This document shows positions 3,039 to 22,559 of a stretch of DNA of 64,000 bases, piece by piece (the stretch's first letter is position 1; each line of letters starts with the position of its first letter). The translations under genes and the position numbers were made by a program. A model generated the notes under the pieces. That model ran no database searches. It saw only the letters and a list, made by a program, of their open reading frames with translations, and was not told where the DNA came from. The DNA is taken from sequence record MW822008.1, one strand, 5' to 3'. Source of the DNA: Escherichia phage BF17.

Positions 3039-3665
3039 ATGGAAAGACAAATAATTGCAATTAACGGTACTATCGGTAGCGGCAAAGATACTTTTGGTGA
3101 AACTTTTATCAATAATGGTTACACAAGAATGTCATTTGCAACTAATCTTAAAGATTCAGTTGCTGCTATCTTTGGATGGGATCGTGAAATGCTTGAGGGT
3201 TCGACTAAGGAAAGTCGTAAACTCCGTGAAGAGCCAGACCAGTACTGGTGTGAGAAGTTGGGGCGTGATGATGTTTCCCCTCGTTGGGTATTACAGAATT
3301 ACGGTACTAATATTTTGCGTAAGTACTTTCATAATGATATTTGGGTCCATAGCTTAGAGAAGTCAATGCAATCTGTTGAAGGGAATATTATCATTACTGA
3401 CTGCCGATTTCCAAATGAACTAAAAATGATTCGTTCATTAAATGGTATTGTGATTGAAGTTCAGCGTACCCTCCCACACTGGTATGGTTTAGCAGCATCT
3501 TTTAATAAAGGTGATATTAGCATGAAACCAATTGAGTTAGAATCAGTTCATGAATCTGAATGGGCGTGGATTGGTATCAATAATCCTGATATCATTGTAC
3601 AAAATAATAGCACAATTGAAGCGTTGCACCAACAAGCATTGAGCGTTATTTATGCCAATAAGTGA
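3039..3665 (+). CDS. P-loop nucleotide kinase, dNMP-kinase-like (T4 gp1-like)
   Basis: N-terminal Walker A INGTIGSGKDT resembles T4 gp1 LSGVKRSGKDT; GGAGAAG RBS. Confidence 0.55.
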   Translation: MERQIIAINGTIGSGKDTFGETFINNGYTRMSFATNLKDSVAAIFGWDREMLEGSTKESRKLREEPDQYWCEKLGRDDVSPRWVLQNYGTNILRKYFHNDIWVHSLEKSMQSVEGNIIITDCRFPNELKMIRSLNGIVIEVQRTLPHWYGLAASFNKGDISMKPIELESVHESEWAWIGINNPDIIVQNNSTIEALHQQALSVIYANK

Positions 3666-3759: not shown

Positions 3760-6423
3760 ATGGCAGGAGATCTACTCTCACCTGGCGTTTCCATTTCAGT
3801 AACTGATGAAAGTATGAGTACTGCTGCTGCTCCTGGCACAGTACCACTATTTGTAATCGCTACTGCTGAAGACAAACTTGTTCCTGGTAGCAGTGCAATC
3901 GCTGCGGGAACCACTAAAGCAAACGCTGGTAAACTACAGCTACTAACATCACAGAAAAGCTCACTAGATACATTTGGCTCACCAATTTTCCAAATGAACA
4001 ATGGTTCAGTTGTTCAAGGTGACGAACTAAACGAATATGGTCTACATGCTGTATATTCTTATCTAGGCATCACCAACCGTGCATATGTTATTCGTGCTGA
4101 TATCGATTTAGCTCAACTATCACCAAGTGCAACTGCACCAACTGGTCCAGTACCAAATGGTACTCTATGGTTTGATGCTGCTCAATCACAAATTGAAGCT
4201 TATGTTGCTAAGAAAGACAGCCCAAGCAGCTTCTATGACTGGCAATTGAAGCCTGTTACCATCGTAAGTTCTGAAGAAGTTGACGATGTTAGCCTAGTTG
4301 GTCTAAACGTTGATGATCTAGTTCTACGTTATAAGCCAAGTAATGGTCAAATGCTTATGTACAAACGTGCAGCATCTGGTCTAGTACAGGTTGAAACTTA
4401 TCTATCACCAATCAACAAAGTTCCAGTTGGTTCAACTGTTGAACAAGGTAACGTATGGATTCGTGATGGTTATACTCAAAATGGTTCAAACTATTTTGGT
4501 ACTCGTTTTGTTCTAAAACGTTATGCATCTCTAACTCAAGTTTGGAATATCGTTCCAGCATATACTGGTAATTCTTTCCAAGAAGTTGAAGCTAAGAGTG
4601 GTGTACTAAACAACAGTTATATTGCTTGCCGTTTTGATGACGATAGTAAGAGTTTCTCTTTCTATATTCAAAGTGCAAAACTATCAGCAATTAGTGCTCC
4701 AGCAGTACCACTAGGTGAAACTGTTATTGAGCAAGCTGGTGAAGATAGTTATTTGACTTTCGCTTACCTAAACAAATCTGTTAAAGTACTTGCAGTACCA
4801 CAAGGTGGCGTAATTAATACTCAAACTATCATCGATAATCTAAATGTTAGTGCTGATCTTATCAATGATGGATTCAAATTCAAACGTGAATCTAATGGCG
4901 GTTTGGTAGTTACAAACACCAAAGGTTATAGCTTTAAAGTTACCCAAAGCGGTGATGATATTTTTGCAGCGAATGAACTAGCTAAACTAACTGTAGATAG
5001 TAACAACTATTCTCTAGTTAACGTTAATAACTTACGTGTTAGCTCTTCTGTTCCACGTAGTATTGCTAAAGACGGTACTATTTGGTATGATTTCGGTAAT
5101 TCCGATAACCTAACTGTTACCATGTACATTGCAGATGTTGCAAATGACGAATGGGATCTAGTACAAGAAGATAACAAATATGTTCAAGTTGATGAACCTG
5201 CGGCAGACCGTCTAATTTGGGTACGCCCTCTATCTCAAGGAATTGATGGTTATGATTTCTATCGTAACGTTGATGGTGAGTGGGTTAAACTAGACAATAC
5301 TGACCAAAGTACTCTAAACGGTATGATTTTCGCTGACTTTAACTTCCCTGAACAAGTTGCTTCTGCTGCTCTTTATCAGAATGGTATGCTTGCAATTGAC
5401 CTCGGTAATACCGAAGGTGTTGTTAAGAAAATGGTTAATGGTCAATGGCAAGTTGTTAGTGGTGTTAGTCTTGATGGTGCAGGTCTATTCGGTCGTGCAG
5501 CACAACGCAAACTAATCGTTGAAGCACTAGCTGCTGTAATCGTCGGTAATGATGATATCCGTTCTGAATTCATCGACTTCAACCTAATCTGTGTTCCTGG
5601 TTATGTAGAAACTCTAGATGAATGTATTACCCTAAACACTGATCGTAAAGAAACAGCGTTCATTGTAACTGATGTACCTGCTCGTTTGAACCCAACCGGA
5701 AACGGTAGTGCAGTTCAAGAATGGGCTACTAACGCGAATAACGCACCAAGTAATGGTTCAGTAGGCCGTACTTCTGCATATGATTATGCTGCTCAGTACA
5801 TGGGCTGGTGTCTAAGTACTAACGTTGATGGTGAAGAAGTAGCGGTTCCAGGCAGTACTGTTGCAATGCGTACCTATGCGTACAGTGATAGTGTTAGTTT
5901 TGTATGGTATCCACCTGCTGGTACTACTCGTGGTGTTGTAACCAATGCTGCAAGTACTGGTTTCATTAACAGTGAAGGTGAATATCAACCAGTAGTATAC
6001 AACCAAGGTCAACGTGACGTGATGTATACCAACAACATTAACCCAATTGCAATGCGTCCTAACCGTGGCTTGCTAGTATATGGTGATAAAACACTATCTG
6101 CTAACCAAACCTCTGCACTAAGCCGTGTTAACGTTGCTCGTTTGGTTGTTTACATTCGTCGTCAACTAGAAATCATCTCTGAACCATTCCTATTCCGTTT
6201 GAATACTCCAAGTACTCGTCAGGAATTCAGTGGTGTAGTGAATAGCTTCCTAGCTGAAATCGTTCAACAACAAGGTCTATATAACTTCGCAGTTGTTTGT
6301 GACGAAAGTAACAACACTTCTGAACGTATTGACCGTAATGAACTTTGGATGGATATTGCAATCCAACCTACTAAGTCTATCAACTTCATTTACGTACCTA
6401 TTCGTATTGAAAAGACTCAATAA
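3760..6423 (+). CDS. tail sheath protein
   Basis: 887 aa; N-terminus MAGDLLSPGVSISVTDES resembles T4 gp18 start LLSPGIELKE; followed by putative tube genes; GGAGG RBS. Confidence 0.75.
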   Translation: MAGDLLSPGVSISVTDESMSTAAAPGTVPLFVIATAEDKLVPGSSAIAAGTTKANAGKLQLLTSQKSSLDTFGSPIFQMNNGSVVQGDELNEYGLHAVYSYLGITNRAYVIRADIDLAQLSPSATAPTGPVPNGTLWFDAAQSQIEAYVAKKDSPSSFYDWQLKPVTIVSSEEVDDVSLVGLNVDDLVLRYKPSNGQMLMYKRAASGLVQVETYLSPINKVPVGSTVEQGNVWIRDGYTQNGSNYFGTRFVLKRYASLTQVWNIVPAYTGNSFQEVEAKSGVLNNSYIACRFDDDSKSFSFYIQSAKLSAISAPAVPLGETVIEQAGEDSYLTFAYLNKSVKVLAVPQGGVINTQTIIDNLNVSADLINDGFKFKRESNGGLVVTNTKGYSFKVTQSGDDIFAANELAKLTVDSNNYSLVNVNNLRVSSSVPRSIAKDGTIWYDFGNSDNLTVTMYIADVANDEWDLVQEDNKYVQVDEPAADRLIWVRPLSQGIDGYDFYRNVDGEWVKLDNTDQSTLNGMIFADFNFPEQVASAALYQNGMLAIDLGNTEGVVKKMVNGQWQVVSGVSLDGAGLFGRAAQRKLIVEALAAVIVGNDDIRSEFIDFNLICVPGYVETLDECITLNTDRKETAFIVTDVPARLNPTGNGSAVQEWATNANNAPSNGSVGRTSAYDYAAQYMGWCLSTNVDGEEVAVPGSTVAMRTYAYSDSVSFVWYPPAGTTRGVVTNAASTGFINSEGEYQPVVYNQGQRDVMYTNNINPIAMRPNRGLLVYGDKTLSANQTSALSRVNVARLVVYIRRQLEIISEPFLFRLNTPSTRQEFSGVVNSFLAEIVQQQGLYNFAVVCDESNNTSERIDRNELWMDIAIQPTKSINFIYVPIRIEKTQ

Positions 6424-14933: not shown

Positions 14934-14961
14934 TTGACAACGCCGAATGATGTGTTATAAT
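14934..14961 (+). promoter_or_regulatory. sigma70-type promoter P1 (TTGACA-N16-TGnTATAAT)
   Basis: TTGACA 14934-14939, TATAAT 14956-14961 with TG extended -10. Confidence 0.7.
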
Positions 14962-15025: not shown

Positions 15026-15053
15026 TTGACAAGCCTGAACGATGTGATATAAT
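15026..15053 (+). promoter_or_regulatory. sigma70-type promoter P2, tandem duplicate of P1
   Basis: TTGACA 15026-15031, TATAAT 15048-15053; ~40-bp block GTTGACAA...GATGTG.TATAATGACCAC repeated 92 bp apart. Confidence 0.7.
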
Positions 15054-15224: not shown

Positions 15225-16553
15225 ATGTCTACTCAAAACAACGATATCCTGAACGTAAAACTGACTCCTAAGAAAGCTAAAGAAGCAATGGCACTGGCTG
15301 ACATGATTCAAGATAGCCTGATGATTTGGGGTAGCCCTGGTATCGGTAAATCTGCTATCGCACGTCAATACGCTGATGAGAACTACCCACTGCGTAAAGA
15401 TAACGTGGCAAAAATTGAGTTCATGAAACAACAAATCGAAGCTGATACTGAAAATGCTGATCAACTTCGCCGTGAACTGGCAGCGTTTGAAGCCAAACTA
15501 ATCGACCAAGACACTAACTTTATCGATTTCCGTTTGTCTCAGATTGAACCAAGTGACCTTCGCGGTATTCCAGTTCCAGAGAAAGTGTTCCTTGATATGG
15601 ATGGTAAGCAACTGATTGAATCTGAACTGGCTAGTGCACAAGATTACATCGCTGAAACAGCAGTTGTGTGGGCAGCACCTAAAGTACTGAAACTGTCTCC
15701 AGATTGGAAAGGTGTTATTCTGTTTGACGAAATCAACTCTGCAATGCCGATTGTACAGGCAGCGTCTTATCAGCTAATCCTCGACCGTTGTGTTGGTGAG
15801 ATGAAGCTACCTAAGACTGCACTGATTCTCGCAGCAGGTAACCGTGAAACTGATGGCGGTGTAACGTTCTCTCTAGCTACACCACTGCGTGACCGTATGA
15901 CCCACATCGAAATGATTCCTTATCATCAAGATTGGATTAACGATTATGCGATTGGTAAGCGTTTGAACCCAGCAACTGTAGCGTTCATCAACAACACTGG
16001 TGCTAAACACTTCAACACCCTTAGCCCACAAGATCCTTCTCACTGTGGTGGTACTTCTCCACGTTCATGGGAAGCAGTAGCACGCTACGAAGATCTGAAG
16101 AAAGTTAAGAACATTGATAAAGAAGTGTTCCGTGCGATGATTGCAGGTCGTGTTGGTGAAGGCGTAGCAACTGAATACATCGAGTATGTTGATAACGTAG
16201 CTAAACTACCAGATACCATGTCCATCCTACAGGGTGAGATTAAAGAGATTGATGCTTCGCTTGATATTTCCGCGAACTACTTCATCACTCTGAATCTGGT
16301 TTACAAAATTATCGACCTCTACAATGAGAAGCAAGAACAACGTCTACCAGTGGAAGATTGGGGTAAGCTGTGCAACAACTTCATCACCTTCCTAGACCAT
16401 AACTTCTCTGCAACTCAAGCAGAACTGGCAGTACTGGCGATTCGTACCATCACGCTTCATAAAGTAGCGATTACGATTAAAGATGTACCAGCGTTTAAAG
16501 ACTTCGTTATGAAGTACTCTGACCTAGTACGTAAAGCACGCTCTCTTGGTTAA
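15225..16553 (+). CDS. MoxR-type AAA+ ATPase (AAA_5 / CbbQ-NorQ-CobS-like)
   Basis: Walker A GSPGIGKS, Walker B VILFDEINSA, AAGN and TPLRDRM motifs; single AAA module; AAGGA RBS. Confidence 0.75.
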   Translation: MSTQNNDILNVKLTPKKAKEAMALADMIQDSLMIWGSPGIGKSAIARQYADENYPLRKDNVAKIEFMKQQIEADTENADQLRRELAAFEAKLIDQDTNFIDFRLSQIEPSDLRGIPVPEKVFLDMDGKQLIESELASAQDYIAETAVVWAAPKVLKLSPDWKGVILFDEINSAMPIVQAASYQLILDRCVGEMKLPKTALILAAGNRETDGGVTFSLATPLRDRMTHIEMIPYHQDWINDYAIGKRLNPATVAFINNTGAKHFNTLSPQDPSHCGGTSPRSWEAVARYEDLKKVKNIDKEVFRAMIAGRVGEGVATEYIEYVDNVAKLPDTMSILQGEIKEIDASLDISANYFITLNLVYKIIDLYNEKQEQRLPVEDWGKLCNNFITFLDHNFSATQAELAVLAIRTITLHKVAITIKDVPAFKDFVMKYSDLVRKARSLG

Positions 16554-16575
16554 TAATTAAAAAGAGTGTTGACAA

Positions 16576-16606
16576 GAAGGATACCACATGGTATCCTTCT
16601 TTTATC
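16576..16606 (+). terminator. intrinsic terminator after AAA+ gene
   Basis: Perfect palindrome GAAGGATACCA-CATG-TGGTATCCTTC + TTTT; preceded by TTGACA at 16569. Confidence 0.65.
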
Positions 16607-16628
16607 TTAACTAAACGAGGAAATACAA

Positions 16629-18038
16629 ATGTCAGATAAACGTTTCAGTGATGTTACTCCGGCTCTCCAGAAAGAATGTCAAGATCGTCTGATCTTAGCT
16701 CGCACATCTTTAATGCTAACATTCCCATTCTTTGGTGTACTGGCTTCTCGTCTGCGTCCAGTTGCAAACAATACATGGTGTCGTACTTTGGCAGTAGATG
16801 GTAAGCATTTATTCTACAACGTAGAATTCATCATGGGTATTCAGGACCAATCCAAAAAGACCGCATACGAAGAAGCAATTCGTGAGAAACATCCTGAAGT
16901 AACTGAAGAACAACTTAAAGAAATGACAGAAGGTTTGACTGATGAAAACCTGATTGCAGTTATCTGTCATGAGATTCTTCACTGTGCATATGACCACTTC
17001 TTGCGTCGTGGTATGCGTGACCCGCAGCGTTATAACCGTGCTGCTGACTATGCAATTAACCAGATTCTTGTTCGTGATAAAATTGGTAAAATCCAAAGCC
17101 AATGGCTGTACGATAAAAAGTACGATGGCATGACTGCTGAAGAGATTTATAACATTCTCGAAGAAGAAGATAAGCAGGATCAAGACGGAGAAGGTGAAGG
17201 TAACCCACAGGCTGGTAGTGGTGAGGGCGAAGGTAAATCACGTGGTACTTTTGGCGATATCAAAGATGGTAAAGGCAAAGGTACAACAATTGACCAGCAT
17301 GACGTTCCACAAGAAGGTCAAGAGGGTGGTTCAAGTGAGAAACAAAAACGTGATTATATGGATGATTTCAAAACAGCAATGATGAATGCTGCTCGTGCAG
17401 GTGGTACTCCTGCTGAAATCGCACGTATGATTAACAACTTCAAAGAACCAAAGATCGACTGGCGTTCTAAACTTCACCGCACGCTACGTAGCTGGTTGAA
17501 GTCTGACGCAACTTATCAAAGTCCTAATCGTCGTTCATGGGGTGCTGGTTTTGGTAGTACTGGTTCATTCTACGGGAATCCAATCTTCCCTGGCATGAAA
17601 CCTGATGATGATATTGATATTGCAATTGCACTAGATGCATCCGGTTCTATCTCTGAAGATATGCTCCGTGATTTCATCAGTGAAGTACTGGGTATCACTA
17701 AGCAGTTTAAACAATTTAAAATCCGTATCATGACGTTCGATACTGAAGTTTATACTGTAAAAGATTACAAAACTGGTGAAGAGAGTAAGATTCTTGAATA
17801 TCCAGTGAAAGGTGGTGGTGGTACTGACTTTGAAGCAGTATGGGTTCATATGAAGCATGACAACTATAAGCCAAAACAGCTTATTATGTTTACTGATGGT
17901 GAGCCGTGGCAGTCATGGGGCGATCCTGATTACTGTAAGACACTGTTTGTTATCCACAGTAATCCTAACAAACAAGCACCATTTGGTGAAACTGTACACT
18001 ACGAATATGAAGCTGACAAAAAGCGTCAACGTAGCTAA
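16629..18038 (+). CDS. vWA-domain protein with N-terminal HExxH metallopeptidase-like domain (DUF2201-like), partner of the AAA+ ATPase
   Basis: HEILH motif; MIDAS residues DASGS ... GGGGTDFE ... FTDGEP; GAGGA RBS. Confidence 0.75.
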   Translation: MSDKRFSDVTPALQKECQDRLILARTSLMLTFPFFGVLASRLRPVANNTWCRTLAVDGKHLFYNVEFIMGIQDQSKKTAYEEAIREKHPEVTEEQLKEMTEGLTDENLIAVICHEILHCAYDHFLRRGMRDPQRYNRAADYAINQILVRDKIGKIQSQWLYDKKYDGMTAEEIYNILEEEDKQDQDGEGEGNPQAGSGEGEGKSRGTFGDIKDGKGKGTTIDQHDVPQEGQEGGSSEKQKRDYMDDFKTAMMNAARAGGTPAEIARMINNFKEPKIDWRSKLHRTLRSWLKSDATYQSPNRRSWGAGFGSTGSFYGNPIFPGMKPDDDIDIAIALDASGSISEDMLRDFISEVLGITKQFKQFKIRIMTFDTEVYTVKDYKTGEESKILEYPVKGGGGTDFEAVWVHMKHDNYKPKQLIMFTDGEPWQSWGDPDYCKTLFVIHSNPNKQAPFGETVHYEYEADKKRQRS

Positions 18039-18050
18039 GTACTAAATAAT

Positions 18051-18081
18051 GAGAACGGAAAATTCCGTTCTCTACTTTTTT
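18051..18081 (+). terminator. intrinsic terminator after vWA gene
   Basis: GAGAACGGAA-AA-TTCCGTTCTC hairpin + T6. Confidence 0.75.
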
Positions 18082-18147
18082 CAGCGGGACAGCTTGGAAA
18101 AAGGTGATATAATTATATTTGTAACAACATACATGGAGAGTATTAAA

Positions 18148-18378
18148 ATGGAACAAGAACCAGAAAAAATTCAACTAACACTAATCGACCTAATCAACGC
18201 TGCTAAAATCATGGAAGCTGCTGTGGCTCGTAATTCATTTAAAGTCGAAGAACTTGTTGATGTTGCTCCAGTCGTATCTAAGTTTGTTGAGTTTGCTAAC
18301 TCTGCACTCGAAGATATCAAAGCACAAGAAGAAGCTGAAGCTGCACAAGCTGCTGCTGAACAAAATAAAGGAGAATAA
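18148..18378 (+). CDS. small acidic hypothetical protein
   Basis: Track ORF 18049 overlaps the terminator; ATG at 18148 has GGAGAG RBS. Confidence 0.4.
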   Translation: MEQEPEKIQLTLIDLINAAKIMEAAVARNSFKVEELVDVAPVVSKFVEFANSALEDIKAQEEAEAAQAAAEQNKGE

Positions 18379-18380
18379 TA

Positions 18381-19034
18381 ATGGCTATTCGTCACGTTGG
18401 TGTAGTACGTAATACAGGTTCACGTGTATTTGTGGTATGGCGTTCACTCCCTGATGATCCAGAACATTGTCTCATTGTTTATCGCGATTCACTTCCTGAA
18501 GCATATGCTCAATCTGTTGCAGATTTAGTAATGAATCAAGGTCAATCGAATGTAGATTTGTGGGAAGTTATGCATAAGATTGGTCATCTAGACGGTCGCA
18601 AAATGCTAGATGTGCTTCATAATCTACAACATTTGCGTCGTGCACGTACTTGTGATATTGATATGCATGTTGGTGGCAACAGTAAGATTTCTCTTGATGT
18701 TCTAAACACCGCAATCAATGATAATGATGCTAAAAAACATGAAGATGGTAAAGTTAAAGAATACAACCCATTCAAGCCACAAGAAGTTGATACTTCTGTT
18801 GAAGAAGCTACCATTGTTGAGCAACTACTTAAAGATGCACAACGTTATGAGCAGTTGGCTAAAGAGCACTTTGAACGTGCTTACAACTTAGAACCATCTC
18901 TACGTCCACAAGTTCAAGCAACACCTGTAGCACCTGATAGCAAAACTTTCTATATTGAAATCCCAGAAGGAATTTCACAAACCAAAGCAATTGAGAAAGT
19001 TAAACAGGCATTTGCTGAACGTAAAGCAAAATAA
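18381..19034 (+). CDS. hypothetical protein
   Basis: 217-aa ORF with AAAGGAG RBS. Confidence 0.45.
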   Translation: MAIRHVGVVRNTGSRVFVVWRSLPDDPEHCLIVYRDSLPEAYAQSVADLVMNQGQSNVDLWEVMHKIGHLDGRKMLDVLHNLQHLRRARTCDIDMHVGGNSKISLDVLNTAINDNDAKKHEDGKVKEYNPFKPQEVDTSVEEATIVEQLLKDAQRYEQLAKEHFERAYNLEPSLRPQVQATPVAPDSKTFYIEIPEGISQTKAIEKVKQAFAERKAK

Positions 19035-19039
19035 TATAA

Positions 19040-19633
19040 ATGAATAAAATAGAATTAGATGAAGCAATCAATGGTTTATCTAATGTATGTTTCAGTGGCG
19101 GGGCAGCAGGTGCTGACCGCCTTTTTTCTATCTATGCAAAAGACAATGGATTTGAAGTAATAAATTTTTCATTCAAGGGTCACCAAAGCAGTGTAGATGA
19201 AAATACTATATTAGAAATTCCATCCAATATCCTTTGTGATAGTTCAATATTAAAACAATTAAACATTGCATGTTACTCTTTACGCCGTAAAGTTCCTAAG
19301 CCTGGTTCGTATGTATATAACTTACTTGCAAGGAATAGTTACCAGATACTTAATACTAAAAGAGTATATTGTATTGCAAATATTACATCACCCACGCAAG
19401 TTTCAGGTGGAACTGCATGGGCAGTACAGATGTATATGGATTCAGTTGACAATCCAGAAATATATTGTTATGATATGAACACTCGCTCTGTATTTTATTA
19501 TGATACAGTACTGAAAGAGTTTACTGAAACATTCTCAATACCAGCACCACACGGTAACTGGACTGGGATTGGTTCACGTAATGCTACACAAAAACACATG
19601 GAACACTTTATTACATTTTTCAAGGACGTATAA
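19040..19633 (+). CDS. hypothetical protein, possibly SLOG/DprA-like Rossmann fold
   Basis: N-terminal CFSGGAAGADRLFSIYA resembles the G-rich nucleotide-binding loop of DprA/LOG-type proteins; stop overlaps thyA start (ATGA). Confidence 0.3.
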   Translation: MNKIELDEAINGLSNVCFSGGAAGADRLFSIYAKDNGFEVINFSFKGHQSSVDENTILEIPSNILCDSSILKQLNIACYSLRRKVPKPGSYVYNLLARNSYQILNTKRVYCIANITSPTQVSGGTAWAVQMYMDSVDNPEIYCYDMNTRSVFYYDTVLKEFTETFSIPAPHGNWTGIGSRNATQKHMEHFITFFKDV

Positions 19634-20562
19634 TGAAACAACTACAAGAACTATATCAAAGAATTCTGGATCAAGGTGTCGAAAGCGTTGATCGTACTGG
19701 TGTTGGCACTATCAAGCTAATCGGACAACAAATGCGTTTTGACCTAAAAGAAGGTTTCCCAGCAGTAACTACTAAACGTTTAGCTTGGAAAGCAATGACT
19801 TCAGAATTGTTATGGTTTATTGAAGGTTCTCACGATGAGCGTCGTCTGTGTGAAATTTTACACGGGACACGTGATGTAGAAAAGAAAACAATTTGGACAG
19901 ACAACTACCTTAATCAAGGTGTAAGCCTTGGGTATTCTGATGGTGAGCTTGGCCCAGTTTATGGTAAACAATGGCGTGAATGGGAAGATTATAAATTCAG
20001 TTCCAGTACTGAAGAAATTCAAGAACTAAAAGATAAAGGGTATAAAGTTATTGATTATACTGGTTCACATGGTGTTATTATGCGTCGTGTAACTGACCAG
20101 CTAAAACAAGTTATTGAAGGTATCAATACTGATCCATACGGTCGTCGTCACATTCTAAGTGCATGGAACGTTGGTGAGCTTGATGCTATGACTTTGCCAC
20201 CCTGTCATAGCTTTGTGCAGTTTTGTGTTGTACAGGGTAAACTAAGTTGTATTCTTCATCAACGTAGTGCTGATCTATTCCTTGGTGTGCCATTTAATAT
20301 TAGTAGTTACTCACTACTAACTCATATGATTGCACAAATTACAGGGTTAGATGTTGGTGAATTTATTTGGAATGGTGGCGACTGCCATATCTATCAAAAC
20401 CATATTGAACAAGTAAAAGAGCAACTCCAACGTGAACCACGTACATTACCAGAATTATGGTTAGATCCTACTATTACTGATATTGAAGATTTCACTATGG
20501 ATTCTTTCAAATTAGTTAATTACGATCCAATGCCATCAATCAAAGCACCAATGGCTGTATAA
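19633..20562 (+). CDS. thyA: thymidylate synthase (ThyA-type)
   Basis: ELLWFIEGS, GPVYGKQWR, catalytic PPCHSF, QRSADLFLGVPFNISSY, GDCHIYQNH; Asn retained in PFN so dUMP-type rather than dCMP hydroxymethylase. Confidence 0.9.
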   Translation: MKQLQELYQRILDQGVESVDRTGVGTIKLIGQQMRFDLKEGFPAVTTKRLAWKAMTSELLWFIEGSHDERRLCEILHGTRDVEKKTIWTDNYLNQGVSLGYSDGELGPVYGKQWREWEDYKFSSSTEEIQELKDKGYKVIDYTGSHGVIMRRVTDQLKQVIEGINTDPYGRRHILSAWNVGELDAMTLPPCHSFVQFCVVQGKLSCILHQRSADLFLGVPFNISSYSLLTHMIAQITGLDVGEFIWNGGDCHIYQNHIEQVKEQLQREPRTLPELWLDPTITDIEDFTMDSFKLVNYDPMPSIKAPMAV

Positions 20563-20569
20563 AAGAAAA

Positions 20570-20594
20570 GGGAGACATAAGTCTCCCTTTTTTA
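20570..20594. terminator. bidirectional intrinsic terminator
   Basis: GGGAGAC-ATAA-GTCTCCC flanked by A-run and T-run between convergent genes. Confidence 0.8.
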
Positions 20595-22559
20595 TTATCT
20601 TAATGTAACCAGTGTACGTCCGGCAAATCTCACATCAGGAGTTGCAGGGATACTGAACACTACGCTTGTTCCATTGAATGTAACACTATCAACTTCAACA
20701 CGAGTGTAAACACCAGTACTTACGAGTTCTTGAATTTCAGCAGTTACTATGTTACTAGCAGTTACTGTTAATGTGTAATATGAGCCGTTTAAAACCCACG
20801 CTGACGCAACAAACGGGTCAGTACGAACAGAACCAGAACCAATTGGAACCCATTGTCCTTGAACCTTCTGCATCGATGTACGTTCGGTATTTGAGTATGC
20901 AATCATACCATCAACACCAACCGAGTTATCAATTGTAGCCAGTACTGGTAATTGAATACCATATCGGTTGAAACGAGTACGAATAACACCGTTATCATAT
21001 ATACTTACATCAGCATAACTTCCCATAGTGAAACGTAAGTCTGCACCAAGTAGTTTTATATCACTTTGGTTAGTAGTACTTTCTAATGTGAATACACCAT
21101 TCTCTAGTAAGTTTATGTTTTTGAATTTGTTATTAGTTCCATTGAAATTAGTATTTGCATTATAAGTACTAACACCATTAACTGTAATAGTGTCACCAGT
21201 AGTGTCACCTAGTGTTGTATTACCTTTAACAACTAAATTCCCGCTGGCATTGATGTTACCTGCGTCTAAATCACCAGTTAGTGATGTTGAACCATCTACA
21301 ATAATATTTCCATGAAAATGTGATTCACCATTTTTAAATTCAACTTGAACTTTATTCATTGAACTCAAAGAAATAATATTACTACTTGCACTTATCCCTA
21401 CGTTTGTGTTTGATGCATTATCAAAACGTATTACTGGCGTAGCTGCTGGTGTAGCGGTAGTTTGGAATAATGTTAGTGTTCCATTATTAATTCGAACACG
21501 TTCTGTGCCAGCAGTGCTGAACCCAATTGCGTCATCGGATGGATGAAATATACCAGTATTAGCATCGGACCACTTAGTTGGGTCATTACCTGGGTTATTC
21601 GTTGGGTCAAACGGATTATTATTAAATGTCAATGCTGGTGCTGCTGCACTGCCATACACCACCCCAAAACGCCCAGAGCCGTCTGTTCCATCATTATACA
21701 TGGAATCACCAGTTCTACGTAAACACTCAATCACAACGTTATCTATGGATGTTTGAACGGTCCCTGCGTTTGTTCTAAATTGACGATGATTTGCAATCAT
21801 TACAGTATTGTCATATAATACTGAAGCAGCGGAAATGCTTGTTCTTGACTGACGAAGACGTATATTCTTATCTTCAGTTATAATAATCCAATCGCCATCT
21901 GAAAGTGCAGTTTGGTTCATTGGAACACCAGATGCAAATGGTTTGGTCAAGTCAGTATCTGTTGCTAAATTTTCAAGGCCATCATGACCAGTACTAGGAA
22001 TAGATGCAGTAATAATTCTAGCAAAAGCGTATGTTACTAGTTTAGCACCAGATATATTTGGATTAGAGTCAACATAATATAAAATTTCAATCCAATTACC
22101 TTGTCCAGTTGGATTTGTAGGTGTAAATGTAACAGGACTTGTTTGTGGATTATTTGCTTCATAATGTGCTTGTGCGGCATCCATTATACCACGCACGACA
22201 TAATAATCACCATTAAGCGATGGTGATGGTGCTGGTAGTGGAGTTTGTGCTAAAGGTGGATCAATATCATCTGGGATGGGATTATATGTACCAACAAATT
22301 GTAAACCACTAGTTACTGAATCTGGTAATTGGGAAGTAAGAAGTTTACCGTTTGCATCTAGGTTTGCAAAACGTCTATATGCCATTGAACCATCTTCAAA
22401 GTCTAGTACACCTTCAAATGCTTTCCATCCTTTATTGTATCTAATCATCCCTGATCTAACCACATCAGCGGTTTCTTTAGTCGGTGCTTTAGGTAATTCT
22501 AGAAATGCCTGACTATCTATAATTACACCACCATCACCTCTAATTCGATTTATACTCAT
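20595..22559 (-). CDS. putative tail fibre / receptor-binding protein
   Basis: 654 aa, T/S/N/G-rich beta-type sequence, last gene of the minus-strand fibre operon; GAGGA RBS. Confidence 0.45.
   Translation of the reverse strand: MSINRIRGDGGVIIDSQAFLELPKAPTKETADVVRSGMIRYNKGWKAFEGVLDFEDGSMAYRRFANLDANGKLLTSQLPDSVTSGLQFVGTYNPIPDDIDPPLAQTPLPAPSPSLNGDYYVVRGIMDAAQAHYEANNPQTSPVTFTPTNPTGQGNWIEILYYVDSNPNISGAKLVTYAFARIITASIPSTGHDGLENLATDTDLTKPFASGVPMNQTALSDGDWIIITEDKNIRLRQSRTSISAASVLYDNTVMIANHRQFRTNAGTVQTSIDNVVIECLRRTGDSMYNDGTDGSGRFGVVYGSAAAPALTFNNNPFDPTNNPGNDPTKWSDANTGIFHPSDDAIGFSTAGTERVRINNGTLTLFQTTATPAATPVIRFDNASNTNVGISASSNIISLSSMNKVQVEFKNGESHFHGNIIVDGSTSLTGDLDAGNINASGNLVVKGNTTLGDTTGDTITVNGVSTYNANTNFNGTNNKFKNINLLENGVFTLESTTNQSDIKLLGADLRFTMGSYADVSIYDNGVIRTRFNRYGIQLPVLATIDNSVGVDGMIAYSNTERTSMQKVQGQWVPIGSGSVRTDPFVASAWVLNGSYYTLTVTASNIVTAEIQELVSTGVYTRVEVDSVTFNGTSVVFSIPATPDVRFAGRTLVTLR

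Follow-up and report, generated by a model that had tools for sequence, protein, structure and literature searches.

We analysed a 64,000-nucleotide stretch of Escherichia phage BF17 (record MW822008.1; hereafter the window, whose positions supply all coordinates below), concentrating on a gene for a 197-residue protein that precedes and overlaps thyA, the gene for thymidylate synthase. On the evidence given below the protein is assigned to the SLOG (Smf/DprA-LOG) superfamily, and it is called here the SLOG protein. Its gene is the third of a compact four-gene unit, behind open reading frames (ORFs) encoding 76 and 217 residues and ahead of thyA, with successive gaps of 2 nucleotides (nt) and 5 nt and a final 1-nt overlap (Table 1; the promoters and terminators of the unit are consensus matches rather than mapped transcripts). 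Both the SLOG ORF and thyA are clearly real genes. The SLOG ORF belongs to a large family and is intact (a single tblastn piece with at least 80% coverage) in each of the 85 phage records where it occurs. Across positions 18000–21000 the window is 99.4% identical to Escherichia phage Turkey3, 99.0–99.2% identical to EC.P1, Ecwhy_1, fEgEco12, WPEC3/5 and vB_Ec-M-J, and ∼83% identical to the 121Q/PBECO4/phAPEC6 group, all of these relatives being jumbo myoviruses of 350–385 kb in the genus Asteriusvirus. Nothing in the SLOG/thyA locus is categorically new; near-identical genes have already been annotated as ‘DprA-like’.

The junction between the two genes reads ...AAGGACGTATAATGAAA, in which the SLOG stop codon (TAA, 19631–19633) shares its last base with the thyA start codon (ATG, 19633–19635). 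The overlap is a single nucleotide within TAATG and not the ATGA that a sequence-only reading of the locus had reported: the letters ATGA do occur at 19633–19636, but their TGA is not an in-frame stop of the SLOG ORF in the window. An ATGA overlap is found in fEgEco12 and vB_Ec-M-J, where the SLOG coding sequence is one codon longer (198 residues). With either arrangement translational coupling of the SLOG gene to thyA seems plausible, and the AAGGA element that precedes the junction has the appearance of a good ribosome-binding site for thyA. The hairpin that closes the unit is likely to act as a bidirectional terminator. Within the SLOG ORF itself lies a promoter-like site (19446–19474, + strand; TTGACA-17-TATGAT, 11/12 with TG), ∼160 nt before the thyA start, and thyA could be expressed from it without the genes that precede.

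The SLOG protein carries CFSGGAAGADRLF at residues 17–29. Searches of Pfam, NCBIfam and PADLOC yielded no threshold-level family for it, its only Pfam match being YAcAr at 19.1 bits (cut-off 28.2; E = 1.2e-3; residues 15–44 only). It did match phrog_768, a ‘DprA-like DNA recombination-mediator protein’ (E = 4.1e-27; residues 4–164 against profile positions 23–184 of 191), which accounts for the ‘DprA-like’ name in recent GenBank records. The protein thus has its place in a SLOG family of its own, which is carried mostly by phages and already recognized by PHROGs. In a library clustered at 50%, a cut-off of E ≤ 1e-3 collects 2687 representatives of that family and one of E ≤ 1e-30 collects 692; most members are standalone proteins of 175–215 residues.

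Searches of the PDB with the 197-residue sequence and with the family profile returned only noise or nothing, and the fold was therefore taken from structure prediction. An AlphaFold2 model built on an alignment of 40 family sequences (26–86% identical to the window protein, and the basis of all statements of invariance below) had a mean predicted local distance difference test (pLDDT) score of 97 and a predicted template modelling (pTM) score of 0.92. When the model was compared with the PDB using Foldseek, 3imk was the sole match at E ≤ 1e-3 and the top matches were all SLOG-superfamily proteins. The model displays the Rossmann-like three-layer fold of the solved members, and the glycine-rich loops SGGAxGxD, GGT and GIGSR are invariant in the 40 sequences. 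On fold alone, the protein is almost certainly a single-domain member of the SLOG superfamily, much as the sequence-only reading had suspected; a search that might have returned an unrelated fold did not do so. The protein belongs to the YpsA/DprA-like branch, and its invariant G24-A-D26 carries the GxD/E signature by which the YpsA clade is defined (PMC6459960).

Further conserved positions accompany the motifs listed in Table 1: A77, T125 and A128 are invariant, and at least 90% of the aligned sequences share N99, Q130 and S179. The order of the motifs is unusual. In E. coli Smf they run VGSR ... SGLARGID ... FPRRNRII ... SGSLVT, following the canonical DprA order GSR ... SGxAxGID ... RNR ... 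SGS, whereas in the phage protein GIGSR (residues 176–180) comes after all the others, and predicted secondary structure places a strand (174–178) and then a helix (184–191) at the extreme C-terminus. When the last 32 residues of all 40 sequences were shifted to the N-terminus, matches to the DprA Pfam family rose from 9 of 40 (best E = 8e-3) to 17 of 40 (best E = 2.7e-5), with alignments that span GIGSR, the artificial junction and SGGAxGxD. The reordered profile also matched S. pneumoniae DprA at E = 0.076, pairing tGIGsR...SGGAaGaD with VVGSR...SGLAKGID, while the native-order profile gave no match; an hhalign comparison of the reordered alignment with the single E. coli Smf sequence, a test without power, aligned the RN motif only (E = 0.44). 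A circular permutation relative to DprA is well supported by motif order, secondary structure and these reorder tests, rather than proven, because the reordered values are still sub-threshold.

Table 1. Features of the SLOG/thyA unit, of its two products and of related genes, in window coordinates
Feature	Position	Strand	Remarks
dNMP kinase gene	3039..3665	+	Between head-tail adaptor (1870–2661) and tail sheath (3760–6423)
Terminator-like hairpin	18051–18072		3' of DUF2201 gene
Candidate sigma-70-like promoter for the four-gene unit	18086..18113	+	GGGACA-16-TATAAT with TG; consensus match only
76-residue small ORF	18148..18378	+	First in unit; phrog_13789, no assigned function
217-residue ORF	18381..19034	+	phrog_15894, no assigned function
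SLOG-fold protein gene	19040..19633	+	197 residues; phrog_768; motif order suggesting circular permutation
Glycine-rich loop S19-G-G-A-x-G-x-D26	19094..19117	+	S19, G20, G21, A22, G24 and D26 invariant in 40 sequences
Helix motif R98-N99-x-x-Q102	19331..19345	+	R98 and Q102 invariant, N99 in ≥90%; compare FPRRNRII in E. coli Smf
Loop and helix G123-G-T125 ... A128 ... Q130	19406..19429	+	Counterpart of PGGxGTxxE in LOG, with Ala for the catalytic Glu
‘GSR’ strand-loop G176-I-G-S-R180	19565..19579	+	N-terminal in DprA, C-terminal in the phage protein
AAGGA Shine-Dalgarno element and TAATG stop/start overlap	19622–19626 and 19631–19635	+	Read off the sequence
thyA	19633..20562	+	Canonical thymidylate synthase (predicted), 309 residues
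Lineage-specific ThyA insert	19984..20085	+	Residues 118–151; 29–34 residues, after QWREW
Bidirectional intrinsic-terminator-like hairpin	20564..20593		13-bp stem, T-runs on both sides; closes the unit and the convergent 654-residue structural gene (20595–22559)

Gene neighbourhoods were compared in an IMG/VR scan for the SLOG family (79 loci). The recurrent neighbour in distant loci is a P-loop protein of 200–250 residues that matches Pfam PF21448, deoxynucleotide monophosphate (dNMP) kinase (E = 1.7e-11, above the cut-off). This kinase is encoded within four genes of the SLOG gene in 31 of the 57 gene-called distant loci. In 25 of the 57 its gene comes directly before the SLOG gene in the same orientation, and among these 25 the reading frames of the pair overlap by 4 nt in 11 cases and by 1 nt in 2. 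The 25 loci form 10 groups at 60% SLOG identity, with pairwise identities down to 34%. The genes around the pair differ between loci, with the tail sheath on one side or the other, a PTH2-like gene or an adaptor, and the order is reversed in two loci; no fusion of kinase and SLOG domains occurs among 249 family proteins. The window has its own dNMP kinase, 45–49% identical to the SLOG-linked kinases and encoded 16 kb upstream of the SLOG gene, in the same slot between adaptor and tail sheath that holds the kinase–SLOG pair in distant phages. One possible reading is that an older kinase–SLOG pair was split in the window lineage and the SLOG gene moved beside another dNMP enzyme. The kinase link is the best support for a role in nucleotide metabolism.

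The coupling to thyA, from which the sequence-only reading had drawn such a role, is a feature of one lineage. ThyA is encoded within 6 kb only where SLOG identity is at least 50% (15 of 80 viral loci), and near none of the 65 more distant SLOG genes. In all 15 loci of this clade, which consists of enterobacterial jumbo phages related to 121Q, RaK2, GAP32, CBB, Serratia BF and Yersinia fHe-Yen9, thyA lies next to the SLOG gene or within one to two genes of it, and in most an ORF of 100–125 residues stands between. The first two genes of the unit recur in the clade as well: in 15 of 15 loci a homologue of the 217-residue ORF precedes the SLOG gene, at a distance of one or two genes, and one of the 76-residue ORF is kept upstream in most. 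Xanthomonas phage XaC1 (44% identity) has a linked thyA as well, with two small ORFs in between. Since the linkage is confined to a single jumbo-phage lineage, it says little on its own about a nucleotide role.

The product of thyA matches Pfam Thymidylat_synt at E = 3.7e-101, exceeds the NCBIfam equivalog cut-offs of NF002497 (342.9 bits; cut-off 327) and TIGR03284 (329 bits; cut-off 108.35), and shares 46% identity with E. coli ThyA along its full length. Alignment with the E. coli enzyme agrees with the sequence-only reading as to the catalytic cysteine (Cys191, TGT at 20203–20205, in LPPCH; E. coli C146) and the asparagine of the PFN motif (Asn222, AAT at 20296–20298; E. coli N177, the residue that specifies deoxyuridine monophosphate, dUMP). 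All the catalytic and substrate-binding residues that were checked are retained as in E. coli ThyA and T4 Td (the R21 equivalent, C191, R171-R172, R211, D214, N222 and the H-I-Y motif), and the C-terminal tail IKAPMAV aligns with IKAPVAI of E. coli; in thymidylate synthases this tail closes the active site for hydride transfer, and arginines bind the dUMP phosphate. The protein is longer than E. coli ThyA by 45 residues in two inserts, where a single insertion of ∼25 residues had been described. The first (∼16 residues, before GELGPVYG) is common to T4 Td, whose structure 1tis aligns through it. The second, at residues 118–151, sets the phage enzyme apart from both E. coli ThyA and T4 Td; across the phage clade its position is constant and its sequence variable, with a conserved GY core, and no counterpart was found in any solved thymidylate synthase. 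We infer that thyA encodes an ordinary, canonical thymidylate synthase making ordinary thymidine monophosphate. A dUMP or deoxycytidine monophosphate hydroxymethylase, which would have implied modified DNA, was rejected because the equivalog scores are passed and Asn222 and the C-terminal tail are retained; the hint of modified bases in the sequence-only reading thereby loses its footing. A paper on T-modification in phage YerA41 proved irrelevant to this enzyme.

The interpretation that we favour, with a probability of roughly 0.45 for the statement as a whole, is that the SLOG protein binds or processes a ligand of the nucleoside-5'-phosphate type in connection with dNMP metabolism. The SGGAxGxD, GGT and GIGSR loops, together with the invariant R98, Q102 and D26 and the near-invariant N99 and Q130, would form one pocket, and its ligand would be a small molecule of that type, as in the LOG–AMP (adenosine monophosphate) and DprA–nucleotide complexes. 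The protein may bind a (deoxy)nucleoside monophosphate or a molecule closely related to it, possibly cleaving the N-glycosidic bond of this ligand, and would work beside the phage enzymes that act at the dNMP level: the dNMP kinase in related phages and the product of the thyA neighbour in the enterobacterial jumbo lineage. Strictly speaking, it would not be a DprA recombination mediator. The literature searched held no experimental characterization of any phage SLOG protein. What stands of the earlier suggestion of a nucleotide-metabolism role is owed to the kinase linkage, which is independent of thyA and more widespread; the thyA linkage itself is restricted to one lineage, and other contexts of the family point elsewhere.

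Those contexts, and some features of the protein and its genes, weigh against the nucleotide-metabolism interpretation. The kinase–SLOG pair occupies a conserved position in the structural module (adaptor – kinase – SLOG – tail sheath), so that some of the adjacency could reflect synteny inherited within one large phage lineage and not selection for joint function. The catalytic glutamate of LOG enzymes is replaced by an invariant alanine, so LOG-type hydrolysis cannot be assumed, and the tests of permutation stay below family thresholds. In the T4-like Caulobacter phage Cr30 the SLOG gene directly follows the gp47/gp46 recombination nuclease genes, and in one protein (P0162) the SLOG domain is fused to a histidine phosphatase. 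The remaining contrary contexts all favour a different function as well and are set out with it in the next paragraph.

The alternative that survives best, although we consider it unlikely, is anti-defence or host manipulation, in which the SLOG pocket would bind or cleave a molecule derived from nicotinamide adenine dinucleotide (NAD), such as ADP-ribose, an isomer of cyclic ADP-ribose or a related immune signal; early in infection the protein would hydrolyse that molecule or act as a sponge for it, along the lines proposed by Iyer, Burroughs and Aravind. Viral YpsA-like SLOG domains have been proposed to sense or process NAD/ADP-ribose-derived molecules (PMC9503650), and SLOG domains, mostly YpsA-like and fused to Macro or NADAR domains, were reported in 31% of jumbo phages (PMC9503650; PMC7824862), so that the published prediction covers exactly this class of domain. 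Within the family examined here, a NADAR domain directly follows the SLOG domain in a 2942-residue protein (P0209), two Bacteroidales loci (L111/L112) encode an ADP-ribosylglycohydrolase two genes before the SLOG gene, and a NAD synthetase gene has the same relative position in Atu_ph07, where the order is NAD synthetase – kinase – SLOG – tail sheath. The domain also occurs inside injected virion proteins: ∼980 residues into the 3820-residue virion RNA polymerase of the N4-like Klebsiella phage Pylas, and within a 5801-residue protein of the crAss-like phage cr130_1, with all four motifs intact in each. Outside phages, a scan of bacterial genomes placed the family mainly in chromosomes of Flavobacterium, Paenimyroides and Myroides, and in 20 of 25 gene-called loci (Flavobacteriaceae) the SLOG gene is followed by a WYL-WCX regulator, of a kind typical of defence loci. 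The sigma-70-like promoter of the window unit would fit early expression. Against all this, the commonest tight partner of the SLOG gene is the dNMP kinase, and its partner in the window is thyA, neither of which is an NAD or ADP-ribose enzyme; no Macro or NADAR gene adjoins the SLOG gene in the window, and the window protein matches no PADLOC model. We place an NAD- or ADP-ribose-signal role second among the functional readings. Were it correct, the protein would be a candidate anti-Thoeris-type factor in phages that are being developed for therapy.

Whether the coupling to thyA has any functional meaning can also be doubted, in that the SLOG gene might be an accessory occupying a permissive slot and the compact spacing a product of general phage genome economy. 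The linkage is seen in one lineage (15 of 80 loci, plus XaC1), mostly with one or two unrelated small ORFs intervening; gene neighbourhoods differ widely among the more distant members; and the promoter-like site inside the SLOG ORF could express thyA alone. That genes for two distinct dNMP enzymes (the kinase and ThyA) recur beside the SLOG gene or overlapping it speaks for a meaningful association, as does the integrity of the SLOG gene in every phage record that holds it, and we regard a meaningless coupling as improbable. Least likely of the functional readings, and in our estimate very improbable, is the publicly annotated role of a DprA-like mediator that binds single-stranded DNA and helps to load a recombinase: the PHROG label and GenBank annotations, the presence of four DprA-type motifs (GSR, SGxAxGxD, RN and SG(G/S)-x-x-T), the Cr30 gene order and the suggestion of Iyer et al. 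that DprA/Smf is an extra single-stranded DNA binder in jumbo phages (PMC7824862) are outweighed by Pfam DprA scores that reach at most ∼26 bits in any member against a threshold of 29.6, by the permuted motif order in a single 197-residue domain devoid of flanking DprA domains, by an isoelectric point of 6.1 (family median 7.0) that makes the protein not basic, and by neighbours that are usually a nucleotide kinase or thyA and not recombinase or single-stranded DNA-binding protein genes.

Returning to the nucleotide-metabolism interpretation, a more specific and decidedly speculative version would make the SLOG protein the founder of an uncharacterized family of phage enzymes for precursors of deoxynucleoside triphosphates (dNTPs): an N-glycosidase with a permuted SLOG domain, or alternatively a tightly binding protein, which would clear away or sequester unwanted (deoxy)nucleoside monophosphates before the dNMP kinase and ThyA pass them on to replication. 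If this were true, its targets could include modified or damaged dNMPs from degradation of host DNA, it would be a phage counterpart of pool sanitation of the DNPH1 type, and the same module would have been reused in injected virion proteins and WYL-regulated bacterial loci. More generally, a SLOG protein that handles nucleotides would add a step to phage dNTP supply. The family is conserved in RaK2-like Klebsiella phages and in well-studied coliphages (121Q, PBECO4 and phAPEC6 among them), and at present it bears a ‘DprA-like recombination mediator’ label on thin evidence; that label is doubtful because of the permuted motif order, the dNMP kinase and thyA partners and the occurrence of the domain inside injected virion polymerases.

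Some details of the distant copies were recorded in passing. The SLOG domain of Pylas (L083, 6001–6492) is complete, with HSGGAVGSD, LLQRNYYQV, GGTGWAVQM and FAGVGTR. That of cr130_1 (L084) contains in-frame TAG codons at ∼6163–6165 and ∼6256–6258, one of them at the family's invariant glutamine (RNFY*V), which is consistent with recoding of TAG to glutamine in this phage. Two bacterial loci fuse the SLOG domain to a UPF0227/FSH1 serine hydrolase, and some Flavobacteriaceae loci hold tandem SLOG copies. In Paenimyroides and Myroides the cassette of SLOG gene and WYL-WCX regulator is flanked by miaB-like and topA-like genes (identified by eye).

The published virion proteome of phAPEC6 includes ThyA (gp259c, 3 peptides), the homologue of the 217-residue neighbour (gp262c, 1 peptide) and the MoxR ATPase (gp265c). 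In the record of that phage (MK817115.1; locus L082, 2557–3150) the wrong-frame mini-ORFs gp261c and gp260c are annotated across an intact 197-residue SLOG ORF; if the database for the mass spectrometry search was built on that annotation, the SLOG protein would have been undetectable there. Decay of the SLOG gene in relatives was considered and rejected, the 197-residue ORF of phAPEC6 being intact and the tiny ORFs wrong-frame calls.

Upstream of the unit, positions 15225–18038 (+ strand) encode a MoxR-type ATPase followed by a protein that combines a DUF2201 metallopeptidase with a VWA domain (Pfam E = 2e-36 and 1e-21); PHROG-based annotations call the latter an ‘HNH endonuclease’, which looks like a misnomer. 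Two tandem, perfect sigma-70 consensus promoters (14934–14961 and 15026–15053, + strand; TTGACA-16-TATAAT, 12/12, each with an extended −10 TG) sit 5' of the MoxR-like ATPase gene (15225–16553), within a block of virion structural genes. No tRNA genes were found in the 64-kb window.

Comparison with the known SLOG families indicates that the phage protein is not DprA, YAcAr, cpYpsA or LOG as those families are delimited by sequence. With DprA/Smf (PF02481) it shares the SLOG fold and the GSR, SGxAxGxD, RN and SG-x-x-T motifs, and PHROGs files it as ‘DprA-like’, so that this part of the sequence-only reading has some basis. It is not DprA proper, which was ruled out by the sub-threshold Pfam score (best native-order E = 8e-3 among the 40 members, and 26 bits at best, in a fusion relative, against the cut-off of 29.6), the permuted motifs and the missing flanking domains; its gene contexts and its charge differ too. 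YAcAr/DUF2493 (PF10686) gives weak matches in 19–20 of the 40 members, centred on SGGAxGxD over ∼30 aligned residues, and the fEgEco12 relative is annotated as a DUF2493 protein; the window protein, as given above, scores below that family's cut-off. The LOG/PpnN nucleotide 5'-monophosphate nucleosidases have the family motif PGGxGTxxE with its catalytic glutamate. The phage SGGTAWA has the invariant A128 at the glutamate position (register by eye), its motif order is permuted, and the phage protein has no Pfam match to these enzymes. PADLOC models, including those of the SLOG proteins ThsA and ShosA, do not match the window protein; a distant member (P0103) gives a weak, local match only to ShosA (E = 1.3e-5).

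The remaining comparison is with cpYpsA (PF12694), which Pfam describes as the ‘circularly permutated YpsA SLOG family’. None of the 40 aligned members matched PF12694 at E ≤ 1, and the best match in the wider family, to one fusion protein, was 19.5 bits (E = 8.5e-4; cut-off 26.2). The Foldseek match 3imk, deposited in the PDB under the title ‘putative molybdenum carrier protein’, is presumably a member of this family. The order of motifs and secondary-structure elements in the phage protein would fit such a permuted topology, in which the canonical first strand stands at the C-terminus, and the reorder test shifts in the expected direction while staying sub-threshold; the protein differs from cpYpsA in being ∼40 residues longer, in having an extra beta-hairpin region (residues 150–164) and in carrying RNxxQ and GGTxWAxQM signatures of its own.

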